Assembly (NCBI GenBank): GCA_001784175.1
Contig: MFPR01000023.1
Coordinates: forward strand, 1 to 49,605
DNA from: Candidatus Lindowbacteria bacterium RIFCSPLOWO2_12_FULL_62_27
Lineage (GTDB): Bacteria > Lindowbacteria > 2-12-FULL-62-27
DNA: 49,605 bases
Reading direction: 5' to 3'
Positions 1 through 20,536 of this stretch are shown here, piece after piece. Under the pieces are notes generated by a model. That model saw only the letters and a list, made by a program, of their open reading frames with translations. It made no database searches and was not told where the DNA came from. Each line of letters begins with the position of its first letter. Positions within the stretch are counted from its first letter, which is position 1. Made by a program: the position numbers and the translations under genes.

Positions 1-107
1 AACTTTTCCGATGCCGTTGGCAGTCTCATCTCACCTTGCACCAGATGATTATGACTCACAACCTCGAAAATTCACCCACAGGAAAACCGGAAGAGGCCCT
101 TTTTGGT

Positions 108-173: not shown

Positions 174-223
174 AGAATTACTACGGGAAGCAGAAATCAC
201 ATGACACCCAGACTGGAAACCCC

Positions 224-311
224 TTAACTACGAAAAGACGCGAAACAACGCGAAAGGGGTAAATTTTACTATGAAATTTTTCTCGAACTTTCACGCTCAA
301 TTCGTAGTTAA
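224..311. repeat. Inverted-repeat element with internal 10-nt periodic CGAAA units
   Basis: Perfect 11-bp inverted repeat TTAACTACGAA (224-234) / TTCGTAGTTAA (301-311); CGAAA recurs at 231, 241 and 251, with degenerate TTTCnCG mirror copies on the right arm. Confidence 0.6.
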
Positions 312-788: not shown

Positions 789-3700
789 ATGAGGCTACTT
801 GTGTTTTTTTTATCTATAAAAACCAATAAGAGTTTCAGGGCCGCCGGATTTTTTACGAAATTTTCCGTTTGCCATCCTTTCTTCAGGCTGCTTCTGAAGA
901 CCACACAGATCGGTGTACTGACGGCTTTGTCCCTTGCGATCTTGGTCCAATCTTCCGCCGCGCTGGTTGGCGAGGGTGGGGACCTGAACCTGATTCAGAG
1001 CAACTGGACGGGCGGCGGGGACACGACTCGGGGGACGATCAGCAGTGTCGACTATGAGATCGTCACGACGGTCGGGTATATCGGCGGGGATACGGTCCTG
1101 AGCACCGCGACGCAGGAGACCGCCTTCACGGGCTTTTCGGCGACGCTGAATGCGCCGTTTCCGGACACTTACAAACTTCTCGAAATCACCGCGCCGGCCA
1201 CGGGGCATGAGACGAAGGTCGCGACGATCGTGATCTCCGGCACCAGCGTCCTTTCCATCAGCGACTCGATCATTGCCGTCGTGGACGGCGTGGAGGTCGA
1301 CACGAGCACGACCGACACGAGCGGCTCGTGGACGATCAGCTCCGTGTTGCTGAACGGCACGGACGACGATCTGATGGTGAAGATTCGTGACAAACAGACC
1401 GGCGAGATCCGCGCGCAGGACACGATCACAGTCACCTACGACGGCATCGCTCCCAAAGTCACCGCGATTGCGGACACGTCCGTCAAAAACGGTTCGAACA
1501 AGGGCCAGGTCGCCGCCACCGCCACCTTTTACATCGTCGACACGGGCGCCGGATTCAACGGCACCGGCTCCTGCACGCTCTACTGGCACTTCGACAGCGG
1601 GACCAACATCAATTTCACGGCCGTGGAGCCGAGCGGCTCTCCGGGCACGTACGTGATCGAGGGCACGATCCCGAACCCGGGCGTCGACACGAAAGTTGGA
1701 TTTTGGTGGGGCTGTCATGACGACGCTTTGAACATCATGACCGCGTCGTCTCTGACGCCGAAATATCTTGAATCCGATCCGGGGACGTACACGATCAAGG
1801 CGCCCGCGGCGGCCTCCGGAAATATGATCGCCGACACGCTCGTGATTTACGGGATCATCGACAGTTTCGACGCGACGACGTCTATTGAAGGCGTCATCCT
1901 GTATAATCCGACCGACAGGGCGTTCGATTTGAACGGTTATTCGATTCAGGGGTCCAACGAAAACGACGCGAGCGGATACGTCACTTTCGCGTCCGGGGAT
2001 ACGATTGCCGCCTTTGGATATTTTCTCGTTACGAGTTCGGCGGCAACCGATGCGGACAAAACGATGCCCGATGAGATTACGGATCCTGCCGGCGATTCGG
2101 TGGCGATCCATACCGCCACCGGAGCTCGAGTAGATCTCGTGGGAAATGGGGCCGCCACAGAATACGAGGGAACGGCTCCTACGGCCATGGCAACCAGCAA
2201 TGATGCTCTCATTCGGAAACCCTCTTACAATTTTGTCGGGCATGGACTCAGGCCGGCCGGGGGAGGCGGCGGGATGATCGACACCGACAACAACGCGAGC
2301 AACCTGATGGATGACACGACCCAAAACGGCAACGTGGCATGGCCGAATCGGAATAAGGGCATCACCGACCGGCTGGTGTTTGCCTGTACGGCTCCGACGA
2401 CCGCGGCGCAGAGCGCCAACTTCGGGCTGTCCTGCACTGCGGTGGTTCGATGGAAAGATGTCACGTCTCCGGATTCTGTGGCGAGGGCCTACACGGGATC
2501 GAGCGCTTGGGGAACGATCACGAGCGATGCGGGCACGGTCAACGGTCTGGGCGCCGACAGCTCCTTCACTAACGGCGTTCTCAACAATTATCAACTCAAC
2601 ATCAGCGCCACGCTCGGGACGGTGAGGATCACGATCGCGGACGCATACTGCACCGGGTACGTGGACGTCTACATCAACGCGTCCACGAACGACACCGTGA
2701 CGTTCGACGTGGCGTCGTCCGGCGCGACGCACGAGACCACCGCGGCCTCGGCGACGCTCTCGGGCAACACCGCCGCCGCGTCCGGCGATTCGGTCCAGAT
2801 TTACATCGACAACGTCGCCACCGATTCGCACGTTCTGACCGCCAACGGCGTCTGGAGCATCGTGAACGTGGACTTCAAGGACAAGACCGGCGAGAGCGTG
2901 GCCGCCTACGCGTTTGACGGCGGCGTTTTTCTCGGCGCCGACACGATCACGGTCCACTACGATGCCACCAAACCCCGGATCACGAAAATCGGGGACACCA
3001 CCATCGCGGACGGCGGCACGACCGCGGCCAGCGAGACGATGTTTTTCTACGTCTTTGACACAGGCACCGGCTTCAACAGCGCCGGAGGCTGTACCCTCTA
3101 CTGGCACGTGGACAGCGGCGCCAACACGAACTGGGCGGTGGCGACGGAAAACGACAGCGGCGGCACGGCGACGATCGAGGCGATGATTCCGGTGAGCACG
3201 TTCAATCCTCTCGTCGACACCAAAGTGGGGTTCTGGTGGGTGTGCCGGGACGATCTCGGGAACCTCATGGACTCGGCGTCGCTGTCGCCGTCCTACACCG
3301 ACGCGCGCCCGGGCACGTTCACGGTGGACGTCGCGAGCGTCCGGGACGTGATCATCAGCGAGATCATGTGGGATGGCGACAACAGCCAGGGCGATATGGA
3401 GTATGTGGAACTCTACAACCGCACCGGCGCGAGCGTCAGTCTGAACGGTTGGCGGCTGAGGGACGGTCATGGCACCGGTTCAACCGGATTTGACCTTCGA
3501 TTCGGCGCGGCGGACTCGATCCCCGCCTATTCCTACTACGTGATCTACCAAACGGGCGACGGCGACATCGGCGGCGCGGCGTTTACGGATATCTCAAGTC
3601 ACTTCGACACCACGCACAACGACTGGGACGGAGACAATGACTTGCTGCGCGCCGGCGATTCGCTGACGCTTTTCATCAACTCCACCGGCGTCGAGATCGA

Positions 3701-6700: not shown

Positions 6701-7316
6701 CGCGGCGGACGTGGAGGGATCGGACACGGGGGTATACGTGTCGTGGAGCACGTCGTCCGCGTCAGATTCGAAGGGGTACAACATCTACCGATTCAGCGGG
6801 ACGGACAGCGCGCAGTCGTCGAAGGTAAACGTGGGCGTGATCACGGACACGTTCGGTTTCAAGGACTCGTCGGCGGTGCAGGGCGACACGAATTTCTATT
6901 ACGTCGTCGTCGTCGACACCTACGACAACCAGAGCGACAGCTCGATGTCGGCGGAGGCGCCGAACATCGATGTGGTGAAGGACGTGGGGGATTCGAGCAA
7001 CGCGAAGCGTCTGCGGCCCGGCGACACGGTTTCATTTTTGATCACGGTGCGGAACAACGGATTCGCGCCCGCGCGCGGTATCGTGCTGTACGACTACGTT
7101 CCGCAATTTTCCACCTACACCGAATCGGCGGCGGCCACCAGCCTCGAAAGCAACTGGACGATCGAATACCGCGTGGACGGCGCCGGCGGCTCGGACGTGT
7201 GGCAATCCGCGCTGTCCGACACCGCCACCATGCTCCGGTTCACCCGGTCGGCCCGGCTGGAACCGAAGGTTGCGACGGCGTCGGACACGCTGAGGATCAA
7301 GGTGAAAATCCAATAA
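789..7316 (+). CDS. Large secreted multidomain surface protein: three lamin-tail-like domains, Ig-like/FN3 modules, C-terminal DUF11-like domain
   Basis: 2175-aa ORF; hydrophobic signal-like stretch ending VQSSAA; LTD motifs VIISEIMWD..EYVELYN..SLNGWRL, PVINEVAWD..EYIEVYN and a degenerate EGVILYNPT..DLNGYSI; internal duplication (CTLYWH.DSG...VDTKVGFWW twice); C-terminal PNIDVVK..RPGDTVSFLITVRNNG..LYDYVP. Exact start uncertain (no clear SD, long n-region). Confidence 0.85.
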   Translation: MRLLVFFLSIKTNKSFRAAGFFTKFSVCHPFFRLLLKTTQIGVLTALSLAILVQSSAALVGEGGDLNLIQSNWTGGGDTTRGTISSVDYEIVTTVGYIGGDTVLSTATQETAFTGFSATLNAPFPDTYKLLEITAPATGHETKVATIVISGTSVLSISDSIIAVVDGVEVDTSTTDTSGSWTISSVLLNGTDDDLMVKIRDKQTGEIRAQDTITVTYDGIAPKVTAIADTSVKNGSNKGQVAATATFYIVDTGAGFNGTGSCTLYWHFDSGTNINFTAVEPSGSPGTYVIEGTIPNPGVDTKVGFWWGCHDDALNIMTASSLTPKYLESDPGTYTIKAPAAASGNMIADTLVIYGIIDSFDATTSIEGVILYNPTDRAFDLNGYSIQGSNENDASGYVTFASGDTIAAFGYFLVTSSAATDADKTMPDEITDPAGDSVAIHTATGARVDLVGNGAATEYEGTAPTAMATSNDALIRKPSYNFVGHGLRPAGGGGGMIDTDNNASNLMDDTTQNGNVAWPNRNKGITDRLVFACTAPTTAAQSANFGLSCTAVVRWKDVTSPDSVARAYTGSSAWGTITSDAGTVNGLGADSSFTNGVLNNYQLNISATLGTVRITIADAYCTGYVDVYINASTNDTVTFDVASSGATHETTAASATLSGNTAAASGDSVQIYIDNVATDSHVLTANGVWSIVNVDFKDKTGESVAAYAFDGGVFLGADTITVHYDATKPRITKIGDTTIADGGTTAASETMFFYVFDTGTGFNSAGGCTLYWHVDSGANTNWAVATENDSGGTATIEAMIPVSTFNPLVDTKVGFWWVCRDDLGNLMDSASLSPSYTDARPGTFTVDVASVRDVIISEIMWDGDNSQGDMEYVELYNRTGASVSLNGWRLRDGHGTGSTGFDLRFGAADSIPAYSYYVIYQTGDGDIGGAAFTDISSHFDTTHNDWDGDNDLLRAGDSLTLFINSTGVEIDSAPFLTGWPAGGWTGTNDTNGVSMERKMSGLNYATVGSGDSEAQWDSHNMRHGNGRPHGTPGHVNSINIPSLTSITPRSPVASSGRGKWTLTVTNGRDDFSGGRVVLKVPAGWSQPTSTANDPGYTTVSVSNGTINTTTFSGDSMIVDLTAWTAQSGTLEIIYGDNAGGRNSLARVASTSSATPVEFQLFYDTSGSVVTMAGDSGVFGVKSETLPVVEYAAANLLGGAIDTNPSGNPRSFMNSEYTLTITHTDTLGRVIYGAHDSVTIKPFLTSATAASDSHVHEDATFAGFYDPTNNDTIQVGGWTDEYGRFQATLHVSSIAGNDAQLNEFRVSWGDNNNSSTVSDSARLPVPVINEVAWDGSVEYIEVYNPTHQVQTLTGFQIISVSNLTDSATATIEVGASGGFNSVFSLNPFHYVVFVDTAGTAPDSGGQTTDSREIDAVTLTDNPAETLVLRNASASFTDMMGILGNSGYFNDADKSGGPDEGVSYSLERVFTNRSGNQSDNWASSDSAPGGTGGAGTSGRPNAKSLYATQVDRLDTVIGRPNGSTMDTARVTLILKIASGDTQPNQQIGVQGAIAEGPRHGDSSWYLVTPSVTNSQGTAAITISANGNNTSGTVHIRIRQPYGVTDSAYIVFDRGESFAYIFQSSETNISDTSAKNALVVFVSFKDTISGIDTSIMPQYRWKVGVSGTYTSYANMTYHTGDTYLARIDISPDTWSKTPHDTIYWQYLWRDRAGNWDTSPTDDSRTADYIDNTKAFDTISSPSAGDTLSGSNALVRLLIGDGARDYCTITVKYDTYASGLWTNATLVSGSDTKTNLRTTQGGDTLDLRWNTTTDLSGTTIVSVRLRVEIYDGFDTRTDTTSNFGIANATGANDPPSDTIALPADGETYAGSVTVRFFLVDPDNQYCTVSIRYAKDSGTAWFPATITGSTSNLYAPSAGDTFTVTWNSKTDLVDTKIASVKLSVTPSDGTDTGPADTTLVFGIDNQKPGVIDTVTAAADVEGSDTGVYVSWSTSSASDSKGYNIYRFSGTDSAQSSKVNVGVITDTFGFKDSSAVQGDTNFYYVVVVDTYDNQSDSSMSAEAPNIDVVKDVGDSSNAKRLRPGDTVSFLITVRNNGFAPARGIVLYDYVPQFSTYTESAAATSLESNWTIEYRVDGAGGSDVWQSALSDTATMLRFTRSARLEPKVATASDTLRIKVKIQ

Positions 7317-7330
7317 TGAGGAGGTCATCG

Positions 7331-8449
7331 GTGAGACACATCATGGCAATGAAGGCGTACATCGTACTGGGACTTCTAGGACTTCTGACCCCGGCTTACG
7401 GTCTGAGTTTTGACACCATTTACGAAACGCGTGTCGACACGCACGGCGTCTTGATCGTGTGGCAGACCGACACGGCTTCGAACGGCAACATCGAATATGG
7501 CCTCGGGACGGCCGACGCGAACCAGATGTCGATCGAGATGACGATGGCCCTGCAGCATCAGACGTCCATTTACGGGCTTCTCGAGGGCGAGGACTACATG
7601 TTCCGCATCCGCGCCCGGAGCCGGACCGGCGGACAGGCGCAAAGCCCGTGGCACCGGTTTCGGACGCTCGGGATACCGGCCCCGAAGATCCTGGAGGTTG
7701 CCGTGGTGGAGGCGACGCCGGAAGGCGGCACGCTGGTGTGGCGGTCCAACATCCCGACGCGGGGCACGTTCGAGTGCGGCTACGACACGTCCTACGGATT
7801 TCAACAGACCGACGACCGCTACGGGGCCGCCCACGAAGTGATCGTGAAGCGGTTCAATCCGCGCAAGACCATTCACTACCGTGTCCGGGCCGTGGACGAG
7901 CGAGGCCTGGAGGCGCCGGAGCACGCCGGCACGTTTGTGACGGCGGAACGCAACATCGCGGTGGGCGCGAAGGTAACGGGAACATTCACGCGGAACGTCG
8001 AGCCGTCCTACATCAAGGACACCCCGCCGATTCTGGACCGGGTGACCGACGGAGGGCTGGACTACTACACGGGGATGGCGTCGTCCGGCGATCCGAAAGA
8101 CGCGGACCAGTGGGTGGAAATCGATCTCGGAAAAATCGCATTCGTGTCGGACATCGTGACGATGTGGTGGCAGCTTGCGTATCCGAAAAAATTCTCCGTG
8201 AAACTCAGCCTGAACCGGGAAACCTGGCGGGCGCTGGGGGACACGTATGACGCCTCGACGGGCCAGACCGCGAAGAGCCGCAGCGGCGATCCGCTCTGGG
8301 AGCATTTCGCGCAAGCGGGCTCGGTCCTGGCGCGATACGTTCGGATCGACATTCCGCAGGGCGCGCCGTACGAGCGTCGGTTTCCGAAATTCAACTACGT
8401 CACGTTGTTCGAGCTGAAGGTTTATCCGCCGGAGGAAAAACATGATTAG
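7331..8449 (+). CDS. Secreted protein with two FN3-like domains and an F5/8 type C (discoidin) domain
   Basis: SD GAGGAGGT at 7318-7325 before GTG 7331 (alternative ATGs 7316/7343/7349); signal peptide ..LGLLGLLTPAYG; W.T......IEYG...H...GL....Y.FRIRA pattern twice; RNIA..VTDG..QWVEIDLG..ARYVRI..ELKVY discoidin signature. Confidence 0.85.
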   Translation: MRHIMAMKAYIVLGLLGLLTPAYGLSFDTIYETRVDTHGVLIVWQTDTASNGNIEYGLGTADANQMSIEMTMALQHQTSIYGLLEGEDYMFRIRARSRTGGQAQSPWHRFRTLGIPAPKILEVAVVEATPEGGTLVWRSNIPTRGTFECGYDTSYGFQQTDDRYGAAHEVIVKRFNPRKTIHYRVRAVDERGLEAPEHAGTFVTAERNIAVGAKVTGTFTRNVEPSYIKDTPPILDRVTDGGLDYYTGMASSGDPKDADQWVEIDLGKIAFVSDIVTMWWQLAYPKKFSVKLSLNRETWRALGDTYDASTGQTAKSRSGDPLWEHFAQAGSVLARYVRIDIPQGAPYERRFPKFNYVTLFELKVYPPEEKHD

Positions 8450-8487
8450 AGCATCCAGTCAACAAAGAGCGGTACTTCCAACCCTAT

Positions 8488-8511
8488 CGTCTGCCGTTCG
8501 GGCGGGCGTTT
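8488..8511 (+). promoter_or_regulatory. Intercistronic hairpin upstream of the 388-aa gene (weak terminator or mRNA processing/stability stem)
   Basis: CGTCTGCC-GTTCG-GGCGGGCG stem with two G-U pairs, followed by only three T. Confidence 0.4.
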
Positions 8512-8555
8512 CCATAGATCGCACAAACTCTTGCCTTTTGAAAGGAGGCAGATTT

Positions 8556-9722
8556 ATGTCACGTCAAAGTTTAAGCGTACTCGTGACGCTGCTTCTGATC
8601 GGCCTGTCGGCGATGCCGGCACTGGCCGTAGGAACCAGCGGCGACACGGCGTACATCTCGAATGGATTTTTCACCTACACCGACACGGTGCCCAACAGTT
8701 ACGGGCGTCTGTCGGTGGCGTACATGAAATCCCAGAACAGCGCGGATTCGAAGTACAAGGGTCCGTCTGCCGGCGACTCGGTGATTGTCGACACTGCGTG
8801 GGACATGACTCAGATTTACAATCTGACTCAGACGTCCGGCGCGGCGGGCGAGACCGTGTCGTTTGTACACTGGATTGAGAACATCGGAAATGCGACGGCT
8901 CGGATCGATTTCGAGACGCGGTTCATCACCGATGCCAACCTCAAGGACACGGACTGGGGGAGGGAGCGGTACACGATCTTCGGCGACGCCGACAAGGACA
9001 GCGCGGTCGACAACGGCGCCAATCGTGACACCACCTACATCCAGCTTCCCCCGGGAAGGTCCATCCAGATCATCGTGCAGGTGTCGATCCCTGACACGGC
9101 GGTGGATGGCGATTCGTCGCACATCATGCTGGCGGTGACGGACAACGCCGTCACGCTGGCGGATGGCGCCCAGGGCGACTCCTGGCAGGCCGGGACGATC
9201 CTGGCGAGCGGGGAGGACAGCCGCGACACGATGGTGGACACGGTGGTTGTTCAGGTCAAGGGACCGAACGTCATTGTGGAGAAGAACGTGTATGAGATGA
9301 CGGCCAACCGGTCTCGACCGGGTGACACCATTGTCTGCGACATCACGTTCGACAATGACGGTTCGGACTCTGCCCGGGGTCTTCAGATCATGGACGCGAT
9401 CCCGCAGTGGTCCTATTTCCAGAAGAACTCGGCAGAAAGCGGGATTTTTCTGGGCAACTCGGCGCAGACGCCGACTGCCACCGCCGACTCCGAGATCACC
9501 GTCCAGTATGACACGGACGCCGCCAGCATAAACGGCCGGGTGGAGTTCCTCGACACGTACGGCAACCACGCGGACACGAACAGGATCGTCACGGCGATCC
9601 GGTGGACGCTCACGACGTATGTCCGTGCCGGTGACGATGACGCGAACGGAACGGTCGAGTTTAACGACAACAACGCCACGGCGGACAACGGACGCGTGCA
9701 GTACCGCGTCGTCATCGAATAA
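8556..9722 (+). CDS. Secreted 388-aa DUF11-family protein, candidate major filament subunit
   Basis: Strong SD AAAGGAGG (8541-8548) before ATG 8556; 24-aa signal peptide ending PALA; mature N-terminus VGTSGDTAYISNGFFTY; central FVHWIENIGN domain; C-terminal VEK..RPGDTIVCDITFDNDG..IMDAIP DUF11-like domain. Confidence 0.85.
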   Translation: MSRQSLSVLVTLLLIGLSAMPALAVGTSGDTAYISNGFFTYTDTVPNSYGRLSVAYMKSQNSADSKYKGPSAGDSVIVDTAWDMTQIYNLTQTSGAAGETVSFVHWIENIGNATARIDFETRFITDANLKDTDWGRERYTIFGDADKDSAVDNGANRDTTYIQLPPGRSIQIIVQVSIPDTAVDGDSSHIMLAVTDNAVTLADGAQGDSWQAGTILASGEDSRDTMVDTVVVQVKGPNVIVEKNVYEMTANRSRPGDTIVCDITFDNDGSDSARGLQIMDAIPQWSYFQKNSAESGIFLGNSAQTPTATADSEITVQYDTDAASINGRVEFLDTYGNHADTNRIVTAIRWTLTTYVRAGDDDANGTVEFNDNNATADNGRVQYRVVIE

Positions 9723-9739
9723 GGACGGAGGAAAGCGAA

Positions 9740-10704: not shown

Positions 10705-10708
10705 GCCC

Positions 10709-13700
10709 ATGCGCGGCAGTGTGTTCCGGCGAATGACCGCGCTGTGGATGATGGTCTGCGCCGTGCTGGGTCTGTGGACGGCGCCCGCGCCGGCCGGCCA
10801 TGGGGATACGCACGCGCCCGTCAAGACGGTCATCACGTTTGATACGGTCACGGTGAAGTACATGTGGCCCCTGTGGACCAGCGCCGTGAATCATGACAGT
10901 GACGCTCGATATTCGAACAAGGACTACGAGACGGTCCAGCTTCTGTCGGCGGTCGACGTCACGACGAATCTGGAGACGGCCTACATCGGGCCGCGGGACA
11001 GTGTGATCTTCATAAGACATATTCGGAATCTTGGGAATGGATACGACACGTACCGGGTGCGCGGGGATTCGCAGCCGGGCGTGAATTTTGTCACCGGAAT
11101 CTTTTTGGACGCCGCCGACGGCGACAGCGTGTTTGACGGCAGTGACCCGCCGGCTGCGACGGCGGTGGTGGGCGCGCTCAAGGAGACGGTCGTGCTGGTG
11201 CGCGTCCAAGCGCCGCCAACCGCGGTGGACGGCCAGATCGACACGTTGCTTCTCTCTGCGACGTCCGACGCCGCCGTTCTGTCGGCGGACACCGTGACGC
11301 TGGTGCTGACGCTTGATTCTCAGCCGCCGACCGCCCCGAGCCTGCAGTCGCCGGCGGGCGGATTCGAAACGAACAGCCTGCGGCCGGCGTTCCGATGGGA
11401 CACGTCCGCCGACACGCTGGCCGGTCTGGCCTGGTACCGGTTCGAGCTGGACACGAGCGGCCTGTTCGTGAATCTCGTTCTGTCGGACACGCGGACCGAC
11501 ACGGCCTTCACGCCGGCCGCGGACATGTCCGCCGGCCGGTATTTCTGGCGCGTGCTCGCGGTCGATACGGTCGGCAATGTCAGCCGGTCGAATCCGGATT
11601 CGAACCGCCTCGTCATCGACACAAGCGCCGCCGTGTCGGCGGTCGGGCCGCCGGACGGTCACGAGACGAACGCGGCGGCGGTGCGGTTCGAATGGGCGTC
11701 GACCGAGGCGGAGACGTACACGTGGCAGTTGTCGAAGTCCGCGGCCTTCGCGACGATCGCCGACAGCGCGGTCGACACGCGGGTCACGAGCCTGAACCGG
11801 ACCCTGCCGGACCAGGACACGTACTTCTGGCGCGTGCTCGCGCGGGACACGGCCGGCAATTACGACACGACGGCCGTGCGCGCCCTCCTGCTGGACACCC
11901 TCGTCGGTCAGGTGAGCTTGACGGCGCCGGCCGACGGGCTTGAGACGCAGGCCGCGTCGGTCCCGATCCTGTGGTCCGCCGTGCCGGACAGCGTGGGGAT
12001 CGACTCGTATGCTGTGGAGGTCGCGAAGACCACGGCGTTTTCGGACGTGGTTTTCGCGGACACCGTCGACGGCGTATTCGCGACCGATACGGTCACCGGC
12101 TTGTACAACGACACGTACTTCTGGCGCGTCCGGGCCGTCGACGATCTCGGCAACAGCGGGGCGTATTCGGCCGCGCGCGGATTTGTGACCGACACCAGCG
12201 TCGCCCAAGTCAGCCCGGCCGGTCCGTCGGACGCGCACGAGACGACGAACGCGAGCGTGGTGGTGACCTGGACCGCCGTCGGGGATTCGGTAGGCATCGA
12301 CAGCTACGCGGTGGAGGCGTCGAAGAACGCTGGATTTGAGAGCCTGAGTTTTGTGGACACGGTCGACGGCGCGCTGACGGGCGATACGATCACGGGCCTG
12401 TACAACGACACGTACTATTGGCGCGTTCGGGCCGTCGATGTGCAGGGCAACGGCGGCGCGAACTCGGCGACGCGCGGGTTTGTGGTTGACACCCTCGCCG
12501 GCCAGGTGAATGTGTCGGGCCCGGCGGACGGCCACGAGACGACGAACGTGAACGTGGTCGTCACGTGGACCGCCCTCGCGGACTCGGTGGGGATCGACAG
12601 CTACGCAGTGGAGGCGTCGAAGAGCGCGGCGTTTGCGAGCGTCGCGTTTGCGGACACAGTCGACGGCGCGTTGACGGGCGATACGATCATGGGCCTGTAC
12701 AACGACACGTATTATTGGCGCGTGCGTGCCATCGACGATCTGGGGAACGCAGGCGCGAACTCGACGGCGCGAGGATTTGTGGTCGACACCCAGGTCGAAG
12801 CGGTGAGTGTGACGGCGCCGTCGGACGCGCACGAGACGACGAACGCGAGCGTAGTGGTGAGTTGGACGGCGGTGGGCGCCGACACGGTGGGGATCGACAG
12901 TTACGTCGTGGAGGCGTCGAAGACCGTCGCGTTTGCCGAGGTCGTGTTTGCGGATACGACCGACGGGACGAATACGACAGACACGATCACCGGTCTCTAC
13001 AATGACACGTATTACTGGCGCGTGCGCGCGGTCGACGATCTGGGGAACGCCGGCGCGAACTCGGCGACCCGGGGATTTGTGGCCGACACCCACGTGGGCC
13101 AGGTCAGCCTGTCGATGCCCGCGGACGGCCATGAGACGACGAGCGTGAGCGTGGTCGCCACGTGGACTGCGGTGGCGGATTCGGTGGGGATCGACAGCTA
13201 CGCGGTGGAGGCGTCGCCGAGCGCGGCGTTTTCGATCGTCGTGTTTGCGGATACGACCGACGGGACAACTACGGCAGATACGATCACCGGTCTGTACAAT
13301 GACACCTACTACTGGCGCGTCAGGGCGGTCGACGATCTTGGCAACGGCGGAGCGGTATCGACTGCCCGGGGCTTCGTGGTCGACACATCGATCGGACAGG
13401 TGAGCGTGACGGGTCCGACGGACGGACACGAGACGACCAACGCGAGCGTGGTGGTGACGTGGACTGCGGTGGCGGACTCGGTAGGGATCGACAGCTACGC
13501 GGTGGAGGCGTCGAAGAGCGCGGCGTTCGCCTCTGTCGTGTTTGCGGATACAACCGATGGGACGAATACGACGGATACAATCACCGGACTATACAACGAC
13601 ACATACTACTGGCGTGTCCGCGCGATCGACGAAGCCGGCAATGCCGGCGTCAACTCGGCGGCGCGCGGATTCGTGGTGGACACGGCAGTGGAGCAGGTCA

Positions 13701-16700
13701 GTCTGTCGTTGCCGGCGGATGGACACGACACGACGAATGCAAGCGTCGTCGTGAGCTGGGCGGCCGTTGGAGCGGACAGCGTCGGGATCGACAGTTACGT
13801 GGTGGAGGCGTCCAAGAGCGCGGCGTTCGCGGCGGTCGTGTTTGCGGACACGACCGATGGGGCGAATACGACCGACACGATCACGGGTCTGTACAATGAC
13901 ACGTACTACTGGCGCGTGCGGGCGATCGACGATCTGGGGAATGCCGGCGCAAACTCTGCCACGCACGGGTTTGTGGTCGACACAGCCGTCGGTCAAGTGA
14001 GTGCGACCGGCCCGGCCGACGGCCACGAGACGACGAACGTAAGCGTGGTCGTCACGTGGAGCGCGGTCGCGGACTCGGTGGGGATCGACAGCTACGCGGT
14101 GGAGGCGTCGAAAAGCGCGGTGTTCGCCGGCATGGCGTTTGCCGACACGGTGGAGGGCGCGCTGACGGGCGACACAGTAACGGGTCTGTACAATGACACG
14201 TACTTCTGGCGTGTCCGTGCGATCGACGATCTGGGCAACGGCGGCGCCTATTCGGCCGCCCGCGCCTTCGTTGTGGATACGTCCATCGAGCAGGTTGTGG
14301 CGGTGTCTCCGTCGGACGGGCACGAGACAACGAGCGCAAGTGTCGTGGTGAGCTGGACGGCGGTCGGCGCGGACAGTGTGGGGATCGACAGTTACGTGGT
14401 GGAGGCTTCGAAGTCGGCCGGATTTGTCGCGATCGTGTTTGTGGATACGACGGATGGGACGAATACGGCAGATACGATCACAGGCCTGTACAACGACACG
14501 TACTACTGGCGCGTGCGCGCGGTCGACGACGTGGGCAACATCAGCGCGAACTCATCGACCCGCGGATTTGTGGTGGATACGGCGGTCGCCCAAGTGAGCG
14601 TATCGAGTCCCGCCGCCGGGCATGAAACTACGAACGTGAGCGTCGTTGTTGCGTGGAGCGCGGCGTCGGATTCGGTCGGCATCGACAGCTACGCGGTGGA
14701 GGCGTCGAAGAGCACGGCGTTTGCCGATGTCGTGTTTGTGGATACGACCGATGGGACGAATGCGACAGATACGATCACTGGTCTGTACAATGACACCTAC
14801 TACTGGCGTGTCCGCGCGATCGACGATCTCGGAAACATCGGAGCGGTCTCGACCGCCCGGGGCTTCGTGGTCGACACGTCGATCGGACAGGTGAGCGTGA
14901 CGAGTCCGGCGGACGCGCACGAGACGACCAACGCGAGCGTGGGGGTGACGTGGAGCGCGGTGTCGGATTCTGTGGGAATTGACAGCTACGCGGTGGAGGC
15001 GTCGAAGAGCACGGCGTTTGCCGCGGTCGTGTTTGTGGATACGACCGATGGGACGAATACGACCGATACGATCACCGGGCTGTACAACGACACATACTAT
15101 TGGCGCGTGCGCGCGATCGACGATGTCGGTAACGTCGGCGCCGCCTCCGCAACCCGCGGGGTTTTGGTTGACAGCGGCGCCGGGCAGGTCGCGCTCGTGT
15201 CGCCCGCCACGAACTCGTCGACATCGGATTCCACGCCGACGCTCACGTGGGCCGCGCTGTCCGACAGCGTCGGGATCGATTCGTACGTGATCGAGGTGTC
15301 GCTCAGCGCTTCGTTTGCCTCCTTCGTGTTCACGGACACGGTAGACGGAACGCTGATAAGCGACACTCCGACAGCGCTGGCCGAATCTACGTATTACTGG
15401 CGCGTCCGGGCGATCGACCAGCTCGGGCAGGCCGGCCAGAATTCCGATTCCTTCATCTTCCGGATTGACACGGGCATCTCGCTGACCCTGACCAATCCGC
15501 CGGCCAATCACGACACCAACGCGGCCACCCTCCGGTTTGAATGGGACGCCGACGCCGACACCTTCACGTGGCAGCTTTCCAAGTCCTCGACGTTCGCGAC
15601 GATTTCCGACAGCGTCGTCGACACGCGCGTGACCAGCCTTGTCCGCACGTTGCCCGAGCCTGACACTTTCTACTGGCGCGTCATCGCCCGCGACACCGCC
15701 TCGAATTACGACACCGCCACCGGACGCCGGCTGATCCTGGACACGGCGGTCGAGCAGGTGACCGTGACCGCGCCGGCGGACGGCCACGAAACGACGAACG
15801 TGAGCGTGACGGTGAGCTGGACGGCGATCGGCGCCGACAGCGTCGGGATCGACAGCTACGTGGTGGAGGCATCGAAGTCGGTTGGATTCGCCGAGGTCGT
15901 GTTTGTGGATACAACGGATATGACGAATACGACAGATACGGTCACAGGCCTGTACAACGACACATACTTCTGGCGCGCGCGCGCGGTGGACAATGTTGGA
16001 AACGTGGGTGCGAATTCCACGGCACGCGGCTTCGTGGTCGACACGGCCGTGGGGCAAGTGAGCCTGGCGAGTCCGGCGGACGCGCACGAGACGACCAACG
16101 CGAGCGTGGGGGTGACGTGGAGCGCGGTGTCGGATTCGGTGGGGATCGACAGCTACGCGGTGGAGGCGTCGAAGGGCACGGCGTTTGCCGCAGTCGTGTT
16201 TGCGGATACGACCGATGGGACGAATACGGCAGATACGATCACCGGTCTGTACAACGACACATACTTCTGGCGCGTCCGCGCGGTCGACGATCTCGGAAAC
16301 ATCGGCGCGAACTCGGCCGCCCGCGGGTTCGTGGTCGACACGTCGATCGCGCAGGTGAGCGTGTCGAGTCCGGCGGACGCGCACGAGACGACCAACGCGA
16401 GCGTGGTGGTGACGTGGAGCGCGGTGTCGGATTCGGTGGGGATCGACAGCTACGCGGTGGAGGCGTCGAAGAGCTCGGCGTTCGCCTCGGTCGTGTTTGC
16501 GGATACGCCCGATGGGACGAATACGACAGATACGATCACGGGGCTGTACAATGACACGTACTACTGGCGCGTCCGCGCGATCGACGATGTGGGAAATGCG
16601 GGAGCGAATTCCACAGCGCGCGGCTTCGTGGTCGACACGGCCGTGGACCAGGTGGGTGCGGCCAGCCCGGCGGATGGCCACGAGACGACGAACGCGAGCG

Positions 16701-19700
16701 TGGTGGTGAGCTGGAGTGCGATAGGCGCGGACACGGTGGGGATCGATTCGTACGTGGTCGAGGCCGCGAAGAGCGCCGCGTTTGCGAGCGTGCTCTTTGC
16801 CGACAGCGTGGACGCGGGCCTGACGAGCGACACGATCACGGGCCTGTACAACGACACATACTTCTGGCGCGTCCGTGCGGTCGACGATCTGGGCAACGTC
16901 GGCGCCAACTCGACGGCCCGCGGGTTCGTGGTCGACACCGCGATCGCGCATGTAAGCGCGGCCGCGCCGGCGGATGGGCACGAGACGAACGCGACCCCCG
17001 TGCGTGTGTCGTGGTCCACCGCGAGCGACAGTGTTGGGATTGATTCGTATGCGGTGGAGGCGTCGAAGAGCACGGCGTTTGCCGCGGTCGTGTTTGTGGA
17101 TACGACAGATGGGACGAATACGACAGATACGATCACCGGACTGTACAACGACACATACTATTGGCGCGTGCGCGCCATCGACGATCTCGGCAACAGCGGC
17201 GCCTTCTCGACCGGCCGGGGATTCCTCATCGATACGGCGATCGGACAGGTCGTTCTTGCGACGCCGGCGAGCTACACGATGACGACCGACTCGACGCCCG
17301 CCCTGACGTGGACCGCGCTGACCGACAGTGCCGGCATCGATTCGTATGTGGTGGAAGTGTCGGCCAGCCCGGCGTTCGCGGCGCTGTCGTTCGCCGACAC
17401 CGTCGACGGTACGAAGGCCGCCGACACGACAGCCGTGCTTGCCGATTCCACCTATTACTGGCGCGTGCGCGCGATCGATGCGGTCGGAAACGTCGGCGCC
17501 AATTCCGAATCGTCCGTCCTGCGCGTCGATACCGGCGTGAGCGTGTCGCTGAGCAGTCCGGCGGACGGCCACGAAACGAACAGCGCGACTGTGACGTTTG
17601 CCTGGTCGTCCGCCGATGCGGAGACCTACACGTGGCAGCTTTCCAAGAGCGCCGCGTTCACGACCGTGATCGACAGCGTGGTCGACTCCACCGCGACGGA
17701 AGTTCGCCGGACGCTGCCCGATCAGGACACATTCTTCTGGCGCGTCATCGCGAGGGACACGGTCGGAAACGTCGACACGACCATCCGGCGGATCGTGATC
17801 CTCGACACCCGCGTTGATTCGGTGACGGTGGTTGGCCCCGAAAACGGGCACGAAACCAACGTCGCATACCCGGCGCTGTCCTGGACCGTGCCGGCCGACA
17901 GCGTGGGGATCGACAGTTTCGTAGTCGAGGTTTCCAAGAGCATCGCCTTCACGAGCCTGGCGCTCGCCGACACGATCGACGGCACGCGGACCGGCGACAC
18001 GCTGATCGGCGTGTACAACGACACCTATTACTGGCGCGTGCGGGCCATCGATCGCGTGGGCAACGTGGGACCCAACTCCGACACGCGAGGATTCCTCGTG
18101 GATACGGCGGTCGGAACCGTGACGCTCGTCTCGCCCGTGAGCGGCACGGTGACCAGTGACACGACGCCGACCCTGAGCTGGAACGCGCCGGCCGACAGCG
18201 TGGGCATCGATTCGTACGCGATTGAAGTGTCCGGAAACCTGTCGTTCGCCGCCCTCGTGTTCGCGGACACCGTCGACGGCGCCCTGACCGCCGACACCGT
18301 GACGGCGCTGACCGATTCGGCGTATTACTGGCGCGTGCGCGCCGTGGACGATATGGGGAACTTCGGCCCGTCCTCGGACACGTTCACGCTGTCCATCGAC
18401 ACCGGCTTGAAGGTCACGCTCACCGGCCCGGCCGACGGCCATGAAACGAATTCGGCGGCGGTCCGGTTCTCGTGGACGGCGGACGCCGACACCTTTACCT
18501 GGCAGCTTTCCAAGACCGCTGCGTTCACGACGATCGTCGACAGCGCCGTCGATACGAACGTGTCGAGCCTCGTGCGGAGTCTGCCGCAGGAGGACACGTT
18601 CTACTGGCGGGTGATCGCGAAGGACACGGTATCGAATTCTGACACGAGCGCCGCCCGCGGCCTGATCGTCGACACGTCGGTCCGGCAGGTGACCGCGGCC
18701 GCGCCTGCCGCCGGCCACGAGACGGCGAATACGCAGCCGGTGACGGCATGGAGCGCCGTGGCGGACAGCGTGGGGATCGACAGCTACGCGGTGGAAGTCT
18801 CCAAGGCCGCGGCCTTCACGAGCGTAATCTTTGCCGACACGATCGATGGCGCGATCCTCAGCGACACGCTGACGGGTCTGTACAACGACACGTATTTCTG
18901 GCGCGTGCGCGCGATCGATGACCTGGGCAACGTTGGCCTGCCCTCCGACTCGCGGGGCATCCTCATCGACACCTTCGCGCCGAAGGTCACGCTCTCGGCG
19001 CCGGCGGACCTCCACGAAACAAACAACGCCACGCCGGTGGTGGGCTGGACTGCGGTGTCGGACAGCGCCGGGGTCGACAGCTATGTAGTGGAAGCCGCAA
19101 AGAACGCGGCCTTCACAAGCCTCGTCTTCGCCGATACGGTGGCCGGCGCGCGCACGAGCGATACGCTGGGGAATCTGTACAACGACACCTATTACTGGCG
19201 TGTCCGCGCGATCGATGTGCTCGGAAACGTCGGCCAGAATTCGGACACGCGCAAGATTCTGCTCGACACGCAGGGCGCCTCGGTCAATCTGGCCGGCCCG
19301 GCGAATGGCTCGGTGACGACGGACACGACGCCGACCTTCTCATGGCAGGCGGTCAGCCAGGTCGGGATCGACAGTTTCGTGCTGATGGTATCGCGCGCCT
19401 CGACCTTCCAGCCGCTGGACTTCGTCGACACGGTCGACGGCGCGATCATGAGCGACACGGCAACGATCCTGGTGGAGGACACCTACTACTGGAAAGTCAT
19501 CGCGATCGACAACGCCGGCAACACGCCGGCCTCCGCCGCATGGACGCTCCTTGTCGACACGGCGTCTCCGACCGCCCCGACGCTGGTCGCGCCGGCCTAC
19601 GGGCATGAGACGTCGAACCTGAAGCCGTACTTCACGTGGACGACGTCCTCCGACAAGGTCAGCGGCGTCTATGCCTACCGGCTCGAGATTTCGACCGATT

Positions 19701-20536
19701 CGAATTTCTCGACATATTACCGGATTGACACCTACGTCGTCGGCGCGGGCTTTTCGGCCGCCGCGCTTGAAACGACCACGCGCTTGCTGGGGGTCGACAC
19801 CTATTATTGGCGCGTGATCGCAGTCGACAACGCCGGCAACACGTCAGGTTCGCCGCCGCCGCCGTACAAGCTCAGTCTCGTCGAGCCGAGCGGATCGATC
19901 GCGTTCGACAAGGCCGAGTACAAGGGCGTGAGCGAGCTGGCGCGGATCCTGCTGACCGACGCGCTCGCGAATCTGTCGCCGAACCTGGTCGACCAGGCGG
20001 AGATTACCGTCACGAGCGACGCCGATCTCCTCGGATTCACGATGTTCCTGACGGAGACCGACCTGAACACGAACATCTTCTCGGGAACCATTCAGTTCAC
20101 GAGCGGGATGACCGACAAGACCGCGCGGAAGATCCGCGTGAACCCCGGCAGCGGCGTGACGGTGCGGCGGGTCCAGACCAACGGCGTCGTCATCACGGGC
20201 GGGACCCGCTGGCTGTCGGACTTCGGAACCACGCCGCCGCAGGACGTGAACAAGGCGCGGAGCTGGCCGAACCCGTGGAACCCGACGTCCGGCGAGCCGC
20301 TCATCATCCAGAACCTGCCGGCCGACCCGTCGATGAGCATCGAGATTTACACGCTCGACATGCGAAAAGTCCGGAGCCTCTACAACGGCAGCGGCATCAG
20401 CGTCTCGAACTTCGGCAGCGCCGCCCAGTGGGACGGCCGCAACGACGCGGGCGATTACGTGGCCAGCGGCGTGTACCTCTACGTGATCAAGAGCCAGTTC
20501 GGGACGACGGTCAAGAAGATCACGCTGGTGAAATAG
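10709..20536 (+). CDS. Giant secreted repeat protein (~3275 aa): N-terminal module homologous to the 388-aa protein, 29 FN3-like repeats, C-terminal FlgD-Ig/T9SS-type sorting-like domain
   Basis: Signal peptide MRGSVFRRMTALWMMVCAVLGLWTAPAPA from ATG 10709 (or 10733); 29 occurrences of a (Y/F)(Y/F)W(R/K) strand; C-terminus WPNPWNP..IEIYTL..KVRSL..WDGRNDAG..VASGVYLY..KKITLVK. Confidence 0.88.
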   Translation: MRGSVFRRMTALWMMVCAVLGLWTAPAPAGHGDTHAPVKTVITFDTVTVKYMWPLWTSAVNHDSDARYSNKDYETVQLLSAVDVTTNLETAYIGPRDSVIFIRHIRNLGNGYDTYRVRGDSQPGVNFVTGIFLDAADGDSVFDGSDPPAATAVVGALKETVVLVRVQAPPTAVDGQIDTLLLSATSDAAVLSADTVTLVLTLDSQPPTAPSLQSPAGGFETNSLRPAFRWDTSADTLAGLAWYRFELDTSGLFVNLVLSDTRTDTAFTPAADMSAGRYFWRVLAVDTVGNVSRSNPDSNRLVIDTSAAVSAVGPPDGHETNAAAVRFEWASTEAETYTWQLSKSAAFATIADSAVDTRVTSLNRTLPDQDTYFWRVLARDTAGNYDTTAVRALLLDTLVGQVSLTAPADGLETQAASVPILWSAVPDSVGIDSYAVEVAKTTAFSDVVFADTVDGVFATDTVTGLYNDTYFWRVRAVDDLGNSGAYSAARGFVTDTSVAQVSPAGPSDAHETTNASVVVTWTAVGDSVGIDSYAVEASKNAGFESLSFVDTVDGALTGDTITGLYNDTYYWRVRAVDVQGNGGANSATRGFVVDTLAGQVNVSGPADGHETTNVNVVVTWTALADSVGIDSYAVEASKSAAFASVAFADTVDGALTGDTIMGLYNDTYYWRVRAIDDLGNAGANSTARGFVVDTQVEAVSVTAPSDAHETTNASVVVSWTAVGADTVGIDSYVVEASKTVAFAEVVFADTTDGTNTTDTITGLYNDTYYWRVRAVDDLGNAGANSATRGFVADTHVGQVSLSMPADGHETTSVSVVATWTAVADSVGIDSYAVEASPSAAFSIVVFADTTDGTTTADTITGLYNDTYYWRVRAVDDLGNGGAVSTARGFVVDTSIGQVSVTGPTDGHETTNASVVVTWTAVADSVGIDSYAVEASKSAAFASVVFADTTDGTNTTDTITGLYNDTYYWRVRAIDEAGNAGVNSAARGFVVDTAVEQVSLSLPADGHDTTNASVVVSWAAVGADSVGIDSYVVEASKSAAFAAVVFADTTDGANTTDTITGLYNDTYYWRVRAIDDLGNAGANSATHGFVVDTAVGQVSATGPADGHETTNVSVVVTWSAVADSVGIDSYAVEASKSAVFAGMAFADTVEGALTGDTVTGLYNDTYFWRVRAIDDLGNGGAYSAARAFVVDTSIEQVVAVSPSDGHETTSASVVVSWTAVGADSVGIDSYVVEASKSAGFVAIVFVDTTDGTNTADTITGLYNDTYYWRVRAVDDVGNISANSSTRGFVVDTAVAQVSVSSPAAGHETTNVSVVVAWSAASDSVGIDSYAVEASKSTAFADVVFVDTTDGTNATDTITGLYNDTYYWRVRAIDDLGNIGAVSTARGFVVDTSIGQVSVTSPADAHETTNASVGVTWSAVSDSVGIDSYAVEASKSTAFAAVVFVDTTDGTNTTDTITGLYNDTYYWRVRAIDDVGNVGAASATRGVLVDSGAGQVALVSPATNSSTSDSTPTLTWAALSDSVGIDSYVIEVSLSASFASFVFTDTVDGTLISDTPTALAESTYYWRVRAIDQLGQAGQNSDSFIFRIDTGISLTLTNPPANHDTNAATLRFEWDADADTFTWQLSKSSTFATISDSVVDTRVTSLVRTLPEPDTFYWRVIARDTASNYDTATGRRLILDTAVEQVTVTAPADGHETTNVSVTVSWTAIGADSVGIDSYVVEASKSVGFAEVVFVDTTDMTNTTDTVTGLYNDTYFWRARAVDNVGNVGANSTARGFVVDTAVGQVSLASPADAHETTNASVGVTWSAVSDSVGIDSYAVEASKGTAFAAVVFADTTDGTNTADTITGLYNDTYFWRVRAVDDLGNIGANSAARGFVVDTSIAQVSVSSPADAHETTNASVVVTWSAVSDSVGIDSYAVEASKSSAFASVVFADTPDGTNTTDTITGLYNDTYYWRVRAIDDVGNAGANSTARGFVVDTAVDQVGAASPADGHETTNASVVVSWSAIGADTVGIDSYVVEAAKSAAFASVLFADSVDAGLTSDTITGLYNDTYFWRVRAVDDLGNVGANSTARGFVVDTAIAHVSAAAPADGHETNATPVRVSWSTASDSVGIDSYAVEASKSTAFAAVVFVDTTDGTNTTDTITGLYNDTYYWRVRAIDDLGNSGAFSTGRGFLIDTAIGQVVLATPASYTMTTDSTPALTWTALTDSAGIDSYVVEVSASPAFAALSFADTVDGTKAADTTAVLADSTYYWRVRAIDAVGNVGANSESSVLRVDTGVSVSLSSPADGHETNSATVTFAWSSADAETYTWQLSKSAAFTTVIDSVVDSTATEVRRTLPDQDTFFWRVIARDTVGNVDTTIRRIVILDTRVDSVTVVGPENGHETNVAYPALSWTVPADSVGIDSFVVEVSKSIAFTSLALADTIDGTRTGDTLIGVYNDTYYWRVRAIDRVGNVGPNSDTRGFLVDTAVGTVTLVSPVSGTVTSDTTPTLSWNAPADSVGIDSYAIEVSGNLSFAALVFADTVDGALTADTVTALTDSAYYWRVRAVDDMGNFGPSSDTFTLSIDTGLKVTLTGPADGHETNSAAVRFSWTADADTFTWQLSKTAAFTTIVDSAVDTNVSSLVRSLPQEDTFYWRVIAKDTVSNSDTSAARGLIVDTSVRQVTAAAPAAGHETANTQPVTAWSAVADSVGIDSYAVEVSKAAAFTSVIFADTIDGAILSDTLTGLYNDTYFWRVRAIDDLGNVGLPSDSRGILIDTFAPKVTLSAPADLHETNNATPVVGWTAVSDSAGVDSYVVEAAKNAAFTSLVFADTVAGARTSDTLGNLYNDTYYWRVRAIDVLGNVGQNSDTRKILLDTQGASVNLAGPANGSVTTDTTPTFSWQAVSQVGIDSFVLMVSRASTFQPLDFVDTVDGAIMSDTATILVEDTYYWKVIAIDNAGNTPASAAWTLLVDTASPTAPTLVAPAYGHETSNLKPYFTWTTSSDKVSGVYAYRLEISTDSNFSTYYRIDTYVVGAGFSAAALETTTRLLGVDTYYWRVIAVDNAGNTSGSPPPPYKLSLVEPSGSIAFDKAEYKGVSELARILLTDALANLSPNLVDQAEITVTSDADLLGFTMFLTETDLNTNIFSGTIQFTSGMTDKTARKIRVNPGSGVTVRRVQTNGVVITGGTRWLSDFGTTPPQDVNKARSWPNPWNPTSGEPLIIQNLPADPSMSIEIYTLDMRKVRSLYNGSGISVSNFGSAAQWDGRNDAGDYVASGVYLYVIKSQFGTTVKKITLVK
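11324..19880 (+). repeat. Intragenic tandem array of 29 FN3-like units, main type with 297/300-bp period
   Basis: Tyr codon of LYNDT at 12104, 12401, 12698, 12998, 13295, 13592, 13892, 14189, 14489, 14786 and 15083. Array boundaries approximate. Confidence 0.95.

Follow-up and report, generated by a model that had tools for sequence, protein, structure and literature searches.

Secreted proteins that end inside a DUF11/CLIPPER domain: a possible split adhesin of Candidatus Lindowbacteria

Chaperone-usher pili (type 1, P, Csu and CFA/I) are built of immunoglobulin (Ig)-like subunits that lack a strand, which is supplied by the N-terminal extension of the next subunit. These subunits take tip, shaft and terminator roles. 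The giant adhesins of the SprB type, which are anchored through the type IX secretion system (T9SS) and have PorP/SprF-type partners, are cargos known as single chains. SpyTag/SpyCatcher, SnoopTag and DogTag are man-made from intact domains: a strand with the reactive residue is split off a Cna-type domain and reacts on docking. The locus described here belongs to Candidatus Lindowbacteria bacterium RIFCSPLOWO2_12_FULL_62_27 (assembly GCA_001784175.1, contig MFPR01000023.1, positions 1-49,605; this whole stretch of 49,605 nucleotides is called the window). The list of open reading frames (ORFs) and their translations show four co-oriented genes for secreted proteins on the + strand, in the order A, X, B and C (Table 1). 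Proteins A, B and C may be pieces of one modular surface adhesin that is cut inside DUF11/CLIPPER domains, the pieces completing each other in trans and probably being locked by isopeptide bonds. This reading has, in our judgement, an even chance of being correct.

The DUF11/CLIPPER domain, known as an intramolecular isopeptide domain of fibrillar adhesins, folds in the CnaA-like manner; its first and penultimate strands are linked by a bond between Lys and Asn, for which Asp is the catalyst. In the CLIPPER crystal structure 9IFR these residues are Lys715, Asp748 and Asn806 of a domain spanning residues 708-828 (PMC12617251). The accessible part of that paper mentions no split or intermolecular form of the domain. 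Other published DUF11 fibres, GhlA of Litorilinea (bioRxiv 10.1101/2025.08.19.671072) and F-Anchor of F-ENA (PMC12357932), are single chains according to the available portions of their descriptions. No account of a split DUF11/CLIPPER domain came up in full-text literature searches. The nearest published case, which by analogy may serve as a precedent for the mechanism proposed below, belongs to another fold family. It is BsaA of Clostridium perfringens, a member of the TasA/camelysin family. The available sections of a preprint describe a donor-strand "exchange and lock", in which an N-terminal segment enters the sheet of the neighbouring subunit and is fixed there by an autocatalytic isopeptide bond. 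The bond joins N-terminal Asn35 to Lys74 of the following subunit, with Glu56 as the acidic catalyst, and oligomers are lost in mutants (PMC11580942).

A DUF11-type domain is situated at the C-terminus of both A and B. The two domains are homologous, as a preliminary description of the locus had held (B 232-323 against A 2053-2132, 31% identity, BLASTP E 2e-9). Protein A matches PF01345 with 25.4 bits (cut-off 24.6) and TIGR01451 with 29.3 bits (cut-off 24). Protein B matches TIGR01451 with 25.2 bits (cut-off 24) and PF01345 with 21.4 bits, which is under the cut-off; a weak DUF11 match lies at 249-322. A hidden Markov model (HMM) of the canonical repeat was made from 960 tandem DUF11 repeats of 99 long proteins, of which 376 (at most 4 per protein) were aligned over 137 positions. 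Its landmarks are K15, D49, the F strand at 86-95, a loop, the Asn strand at 102-111 with N107, and the last strand at about 124-130. They agree with the CnaA-like fold as set out in the accessible part of the CLIPPER paper (PMC12617251). The family is recognized by this HMM with E values of 1e-11 to 1e-20.

Eleven family members have an alignment that comes as close as 3 residues or fewer to the stop, and all 11 alignments break off at HMM position 92-95 of 137. N107 is unaligned in A and B of the window. As these alignments reach neither the Asn strand nor the last strand, the F strand is the final one in A and B, and two strands are missing from the domain, which will be called the acceptor domain. 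The preliminary description had rightly seen the acceptor domains as incomplete, but it had counted one missing strand instead of two and had taken the Asn strand for the final one, a place that the accessible text on the CnaA-like fold gives to another strand, the Asn strand being penultimate (PMC12617251). In the subfamily of the window an insert in the E-F loop interrupts the HMM alignment early; hhalign still sets B 365-386 on the F-strand columns. The shorter B relatives have exactly one strand after the R-W-T-L strand, and all 45 members of the B-family alignment, which reaches down to ~23% identity, share the same terminal strand, x-V-x-F-x-V-x-I-x. The complete DUF11/CLIPPER sandwich has the Asn strand and the last strand in the same domain; in A and B neither is found there.

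The residues that would form the bond are divided in a corresponding manner. Positions K15 and D49 of the HMM align to K243 and D280 in B and to K2064 and D2102 in A, and the Asn proposed as their partner, N36, lies in the strand that follows the signal peptide of B. The reading frames of A, B and C and the codons first named for these residues proved correct on a codon check (in B, Lys243 at 9282-9284 AAG and Asp280 at 9393-9395 GAC; in A, Lys2064 at 6978-6980 and Asp2102 at 7092-7094). The Lys...Asp spacing in B is 37 residues, against 33 in 9IFR. Among the positions conserved in at least 90% of the 45 members are T27 and N36 of the N-terminal strand as well as K243, D280 and P283 of the C-terminal domain. 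The triad is N/K/D in 41 of the 45 and N/K/E in one more, which bears out the conservation anticipated for it. The K/D pair is present in 43, with one K/E in addition. In P0087 all three residues are lost together (L/S/Q). The mean column conservation is 0.44-0.46 in the donor segment (25-58), 0.39 in the middle domain and 0.51 in the acceptor core, so that the donor segment does not fall behind the folded domains in conservation.

The family to which B belongs consists of proteins of ~340-480 aa. Eighteen close matches were found, two of which are the window's own protein, and four paralogs lie on one 17.7-kb contig. An exhaustive search gave 194 matches at E up to 1e-3, many of them full-length at 335-420 aa. 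They carry automatic names such as "DUF11 domain-containing" or "TIGR01451 family". Their sources include Hydrogenedentota metagenome-assembled genomes, and the Atlas clusters are labelled mostly Pseudomonadota and Thermodesulfobacteriota.

The N-terminal consensus of B, T-x-I-x-N-G-x-F-x-x-G-D-T-x-P-...-G-R-L-S, resembles the canonical t-t-i-t-N-t-a-t-v-...-d-...-p-...-t-v-t-v in motif and spacing. In 10 of 12 windows hhalign sets B 26-56 on the columns of the Asn strand and the last strand (probability 0.3%, E ~0.2). The segment is identified as a donor by the triad, by its position and by its conservation, not by profile similarity. With an HMM of B-family residues 24-60, all B-type proteins are recovered (E 1e-15 to 1e-19), as are diverged B-like proteins at other loci (4.5e-5 to 7e-3). 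The locus thus resembles the CLIPPER proteins, as far as the accessible part of their description goes, in the domain family, the similar Lys...Asp spacing, the T.I.N-type motif of the Asn strand and in being made up of secreted surface proteins (PMC12617251). It differs in that the CLIPPER triad is contained in one complete domain of one chain, whereas here the Asn and the last strand are outside the domain and a matching segment is found at the N-terminus of B and probably of C.

The distribution of donor and acceptor features over the three proteins is uneven. Proteins of the A type have an acceptor domain only, and they keep Lys and Asp in 7 of 7 cases: A of the window, two more from its own genome, three from two related genomes and a short one in a cluster on contig C28. 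None of those for which the contig includes the N-terminus begins in a donor-like manner. The mature N-terminus of A (LVGEGGDLNLIQSNW) was considered as a donor and rejected, because the HMM of the B N-terminus finds no match there (E 1.2) and the N-termini of A2 and A3 are unrelated. The C-type proteins have no DUF11 acceptor-type domain anywhere (no match at domain E up to 0.01). Aligned by eye, all six of their N-termini that were read begin after the signal peptide with HG[DE]TH[TA]P...T-x-(I/L)-I-T-x-D, the donor position being Asp in four and Asn in two. At its C-terminus, C matches the NCBIfam model TIGR04183, a T9SS type A sorting domain, with 23.4 bits (cut-off 23, E 4e-5). Of the early assignments, these results uphold that A is acceptor-only and that C is a protein without an acceptor and with a sorting-like end. 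The N-terminal part that B and C had been said to share is confirmed for the middle domain (B ~99-190 against C ~97-190, BLASTP E 9e-5 and 2e-5) and not for the N-terminal strand.

Since the A-types have kept Lys and Asp without an Asn strand of their own, and the C-types an Asp/Asn strand without an acceptor, at least some pairing of donors and acceptors would occur in trans. This is the main argument for complementation between proteins.

The arrangement recurs. The genome of the source organism is 94% complete; C1, C4, C19, C25, C28 and C30 denote its contigs, and L001-L004, L019 and L028 denote other loci. Three of the four genomes compared for the phylum carry the B family. Contig C19 has two further loci, A2-Ba-Bb-C2 and A3 (a frame of 5542 aa)-X3-Ba-Bb, the latter ending at the contig end. 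The loci of related genomes read A-X-B-C (L001/L019), A-X-Ba-Bb-C (L002), A-X-...-B (L003) and B-C (L004). Four complete loci of the main type (the window, C19 locus 2, L001/L019 and L002) and three loci cut by contig ends thus share the order A-(X)-B-(B)-C, with all genes on a single strand, so that the expected conservation in related genomes holds, with two more loci in the own genome and with two related genomes. This order matches the chain polarity that complementation in trans would predict. Where two B genes are present they belong to two subtypes, with the donor motifs SQT.I.NGVF and STDSITNGVF, which occur in the same order in three loci (C19:42529-45000 and 70309-71993; L002 9824-12951). 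The fixed order suggests that a defined chain A-Ba-Bb-C fits at least as well as a homopolymeric shaft.

The operon is read as a domain-split giant adhesin because the mature proteins, when concatenated in gene order, would restore an intact DUF11 domain at each junction and yield an ordinary stalk of tandem repeats with a T9SS tail at its end. From these features we infer the insertion of the donor, its trans direction, the bond, the compartment and the number of B units per chain. Sec export and cleavage of the signal peptide would free the N-terminal segment of B. This segment, comprising the Asn strand and the strand after it, would insert into the open C-terminal domain of A, and the N-terminal strand of C would insert likewise into the C-terminal domain of B. 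Each insertion would complete a CnaA-like sandwich, with strands A-F contributed by the upstream protein and the Asn strand and last strand by the downstream protein. The donor Asn (Asp in C) would be placed beside the acceptor Lys and the catalytic Asp, and the isopeptide bond would probably form spontaneously, without an assembly enzyme. The product would be a chain A-B(n)-C, ordered as the genes are and equivalent to a single fibrillar adhesin of the tandem-repeat kind, and the type IX secretion tail of C would supply export and surface attachment. One or a few B units per chain are as likely as a polymer. Of the tip-shaft-anchor filament put forward in the preliminary description, the split domain and the distribution of donors and acceptors stand; the conserved gene X had been left out of the operon, and a polymeric shaft of B is no better fit than a defined chain.

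A number of observations weigh against this interpretation. The AlphaFold2 monomers of B neither insert the donor strand nor reveal an empty groove. In 4 of the 45 relatives (P0018, P0021, P0030 and P0056) an alternative HMM alignment places the Asn of the E-F loop insert on N107; the insert is absent in shorter members, and its Asn is not kept in B of the window. Two of the 45, P0021 (T/K/D) and P0102 (I/K/D), keep Lys and Asp without the Asn. At the hhalign probability given above, the donor segment has no significant similarity to the canonical last two strands. In a scan for the canonical Asn strand with a position-specific scoring matrix, which had no power, the best-scoring window coincided with the N-terminal strand in only 6 of 48 B-type proteins (the 45 alignment members and three paralogs of the own genome), and no best window was convincingly above shuffles (lowest fraction 0.045). 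No relationship is detectable between the N-terminal strand of B and that of C (B HMM against C-types E 0.5-0.9, against C of the window E 0.86), and the Asp/Asn of the C-types was aligned by eye only. The recurring loci are paralogs and orthologs, so that their shared gene order is not independent evidence. The crossing of the outer membrane by A and B, which are without a T9SS tail, is unexplained. Lastly, the evidence from N36, K243 and D280 fits a closure of B in cis equally well.

In the case of cis closure, B would be circularly permuted. Its own N-terminal strands would fold back to fill the C-terminal domain of the same chain, and Lys243 and Asn36 would be bonded within the molecule; pairing in trans would be confined to A and C, or their half domains would stay unpaired, and there would be no shaft. 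The three residues are indeed located in one chain and were lost together in one chain (P0087), and the long linkers would let two Ig domains sit side by side. No evidence of fused or polymeric forms was found; the search for fused (unsplit) long relatives of B returned one irrelevant match to 14% of the query, which is weak evidence. The predicted structures do not favour closure in cis. The AlphaFold2 monomer of B calculated with 17 sequences has a mean pLDDT (predicted local distance difference test) of 60, with residues 16-90 below 50. When 45 sequences were used, the mean pLDDT was 78 and the predicted TM-score (pTM) 0.67, with linkers at 57-90 and 198-236; residues 20-39 were below 50 and residues 40-80 near 50. 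The strand is thus left unplaced in cis, though both domains have a pLDDT of ~90; the models are silent on an insertion in trans. A complex prediction with two mature copies of B (25-388, 45-row alignment) scored 0.00 in both runs and, being without controls, speaks neither for nor against binding. Furthermore, the A-types with Lys/Asp and the C-types with Asp/Asn need some pairing in trans anyway, and the gene order matches a head-to-tail chain. Closure in cis appears unlikely.

Alternatively, there may be no complementation. The short C-terminal domain would then be stable alone, as a terminal module or export signal, and the N-terminal motif would have another role, for example in recognition for export or attachment or in packing on the middle domain. 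This would agree with the confident AlphaFold2 model of the C-terminal domain of B without a donor strand and with the insignificant similarity of the donor strand to the canonical one. By eye, the terminal strands of A and B also resemble the alternating last strand of T9SS tails; however, no T9SS-tail family matches the C-terminus of B or A at E up to 0.01 (NCBIfam) or 0.1 (Pfam). It would be left to account for a triad Lys/Asp that is kept without an Asn in the same domain, for a near-invariant Asn in the N-terminal strand and for the loss of all three residues in P0087. Moreover, A has no N-terminal motif although A also needs export. An absence of complementation is therefore regarded as quite improbable.

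Structural comparison of B is dominated by its middle domain. A sequence search of the PDB with the B-family profile gave 0 matches at E up to 1, and Foldseek of the B model against the PDB gave generic tandem-Ig matches only (TM 0.2-0.3). The list of structural matches to B is filled by the middle domain (79-237), and 9IFR is not among the matches listed. Among those listed, the N-domains of the GH123 type are best (Z 10.5-11.6), and a WxL-interacting protein of Enterococcus has Z 10.6. The first domains of the PapD-like chaperones CsuC, CfaA, EcpB and Caf1M align with Z 9.3-10.2 (rmsd 2.9-4.1, 104-114 residues aligned). These values might suggest that B is a periplasmic chaperone-like cap, filling the groove of A transiently in the manner of PapD, and not a structural subunit. 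However, they are tied with those of many s-type Ig domains, and the GH123-type N-domains score higher. The families PapD_N (PF00345) and usher (PF00577) have no match in the own genome, the controls being detected in E. coli. B itself ends in an acceptor domain, and a bond-forming triad would make the cap permanent. Such a role for B is highly improbable. The likeness of the middle domain to PapD-like, ASH/MSP-type and WxL-interacting domains is probably that of a shared s-type Ig fold only. The middle domain also matches the B-C and F strands of the DUF11 HMM and is read as a complete DUF11-like spacer domain.

The own genome was also searched for other assembly systems. Sortase (PF04203) has no match in it, the controls being detected, and there is no LPxTG motif in A, B or C. 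The statement that the window encodes no sortase or usher is correct for the ORFs tested; prepilin peptidase, which it also named, was not searched by family. Neither A nor B is matched by the Pfam family Peptidase_M73/TasA (E up to 0.1). All three proteins, A, B and C, carry signal peptides with an end of the Ala-X-Ala type and without a lipobox Cys; the only Cys in B is residue 261, and the only Cys in C, residue 17, is within the signal peptide. The ends of 32 ORFs in the genome match the part of the PorU model that represents the C-terminal domain (CTD), including those of C, C2, C' and the C28 protein. There are also an SprA-like match of 69.9 bits, which is below the cut-off, and 16 PorV-like matches. 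The Pfam SprA_N model has no match in the genome and was silent on the controls too, so that it is uninformative.

Compared with the systems mentioned at the outset, the complementation in trans proposed here would have most in common with BsaA, from which it differs in fold family. BsaA joins an N-terminal Asn segment to an acceptor Lys with an acidic catalyst and without a sortase, and the proteins of the window would do likewise; the available sections describe BsaA as a Gram-positive, SipW-dependent homopolymer (PMC11580942), whereas here three unlike proteins of a diderm are involved, the last with a T9SS tail. The archaeal thread of Saci_0406 is likewise formed, according to the accessible part of its description, by donor-strand complementation with an N-terminal tail that follows the signal-peptide site, with proposed intermolecular isopeptide bonds and no usher. 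It is a homopolymer in which the bond links the alpha-amino group of Asp24 to Asn57 of subunit n-2, and it has neither a CLIPPER domain nor a Lys/Asp catalytic pair (PMC9715654).

The differences from chaperone-usher pili are larger. Besides the lack of usher and PapD_N in the genome, the polarity is opposite to what anchoring needs there, a covalent lock is absent there, and the donor here would be two strands plus a whole extra domain. Sortase-dependent pili are set apart by the sortase and LPxTG motif missing here, and type V (FimA/Mfa1) pili by their lipoprotein precursor and by a donor strand that is C-terminal and acts once an N-terminal strand has been removed by proteolysis, the conserved extension being N-terminal in B. 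As among T9SS adhesins, only the last protein, C, has a T9SS sorting domain, in a genome with many CTD cargos and with SprA-like and PorV-like genes; unlike in those adhesins, CTD-less pieces would need to be joined to the cargo. If the reading is true, the split would be a natural one, in contrast to that of the SpyTag/SpyCatcher kind, and in a CnaA-like instead of a CnaB-like domain.

Table 1. Features of the A-X-B-C locus, with positions in the window
Feature	Position	Strand	Description
Protein A	789..7316	+	2175 aa, secreted giant, proposed "tip" protein; three lamin-tail domains, Ig/fn3-like modules
Acceptor domain of A	6945..7316	+	DUF11/CLIPPER; stops at the F strand (LRIKVKIQ, then stop)
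Protein X	7331..8449	+	372 aa, secreted; fn3/purple-acid-phosphatase-N-like domains and F5/8 type C (discoidin) domain (Pfam)
Protein B	8556..9722	+	388 aa: signal peptide, N-terminal donor segment, complete DUF11-like middle domain, C-terminal acceptor domain
Proposed donor segment of B	8628..8723	+	residues 25-56, VGTSGDTAYISNGFFTYTDTVPNSYGRLSVAY; Asn36 at 8661-8663 AAT
Middle domain of B	8790-9266	+	residues 79-237; s-type Ig domain
Acceptor domain of B	9264..9722	+	residues 237-388; stops at the F strand (VQYRVVIE, then stop)
B-C spacer	9723..10708	+	conserved, ~1 kb; from ATG 10199 in frame with C
Protein C	10709..20536	+	3275 aa from ATG 10709, within an ORF open from ATG 10199; proposed anchor
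Proposed donor strand of C	10796..10864	+	GHGDTHAPVKTVITFDTVTVKYM; Asp45 at 10841-10843
Middle-domain homologue in C	10997..11308	+	FIRHIRNLGN...VRVQAPPTAVDG
T9SS type A C-terminal sorting domain of C	20267..20536	+	TIGR04183

Protein A matches the Pfam family LTD with E 8e-32 and DUF11, at its C-terminus, with E 1.8e-5. Protein C consists of the N-terminal strand, the B-like middle domain, ~30 fn3-type repeats and the T9SS sorting domain; its Pfam matches are fn3 (E 9e-49), Ig_Rha78A_N and a weak CHU_C. Protein X is without donor or acceptor features. Genes for X are situated between A and B at five loci (the window, C19 locus 3, L001/L019, L002 and L003), and an X-like gene is present in the C28 cluster. 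The Shine-Dalgarno (SD) sequence before B, AAGGAGG, had been called the strongest of the locus; this is only partly correct, as X, which had gone unmentioned, has GAGGAGG.

A sister system without the Lys/Asp/Asn triad has the same three-part layout, A'-B'-C'. It is found at C30:60085-69002 (-) and in the metagenome locus L028 (1-6654), the query of the metagenome scan being a 17-row B-family alignment. An orphan A' of this system lies at C25:9027-15752 (-). B' and C' can be aligned over their N-terminal modules, starting at about residue 6 (E 4e-27 and 1.6e-28), and in L028 a gene resembling an outer-membrane barrel lies 3' of C'. A third, more diverged cluster at C28:196002-213595 contains, besides its X-like gene, four B-like genes, a CTD protein and a PorV-like gene.

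The spacer between B and C aligns at the nucleotide level with L001 and L002, and the C frame is open in all three genomes. Between the region 10199-10708 and its counterparts (L001 from 5351, L019 from 7016 and L002 from 13333) the differences are in excess at third codon positions (0.44 against 0.23/0.27), and 11 of the 12 indels listed have lengths that are multiples of 3. There is no ATG near the hydrophobic segment upstream of C in L001/L019 and L002. Judging from the open frame, the third-position excess, the indel lengths and the lack of a nearby ATG in these loci, C may start at 10199, with a Pro/Gly/Arg-rich extension of ~170 aa ahead of the signal/anchor segment. The Pro-rich extension is absent from C2 and from the C-type of L004. 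The first half of the spacer, 9723-10198 (+), has ~70% identity to L001, whose counterpart contains a run of N, and shows no codon periodicity. It could be a leader or a structured RNA; an Rfam search of the B-C spacer gave no match.

A hairpin-forming motif at 10679-10704 (+), just 5' of ATG 10709, is probably a small repeat or regulatory element. There are three copies in the genome, with up to 3 mismatches, among them those at C1 ~109195 and C4 ~54190, and a similar stretch is situated upstream of a B gene in L004 and upstream of C in L002. A promoter and terminator scan of window positions 1-11000 found fewer sites than in shuffled sequence.

The remainder of the window contains housekeeping genes (glutamate synthase, glycogen and pullulan enzymes, an ammonium transporter and purine genes). 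No Pfam family matches, at E up to 1e-3 or 1e-4, five further long ORFs: 29120-30634, 30662-31954, 39951-41474 (+), 42189-43517 (-) and 43514-44842 (-). The coding strand given for the last three is tentative.

A more far-reaching interpretation, which must be considered doubtful, is that these loci represent a natural "Tag/Catcher" system in a diderm. Separate genes would encode the parts of one CnaA-like CLIPPER domain, and tip, spacer and anchor would join covalently of their own accord, in the periplasm or on the cell surface, with no need of sortase, usher or chaperone. Pieces that have no tail would be exported on the single T9SS tail of the anchor. Fission of the gene for a giant adhesin would have given rise to the system, and the sister loci, which have no triad, would represent a non-covalent version of it.

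If the proteins do complete each other as proposed, bacteria of the Gram-negative type would have an enzyme-free route to covalently joined surface fibres or adhesins made from modules. The finding would join intramolecular isopeptide domains, donor-strand assembly and type IX secretion, which have so far been studied apart, and would point to a way in which proteins that have no T9SS signal could arrive at the surface. The donors and acceptors would be natural, orthogonal peptide-protein ligation pairs of the SpyTag/SpyCatcher kind. The same mechanism would explain the widespread and currently unannotated class of ~340-420-aa "DUF11 domain-containing" proteins.

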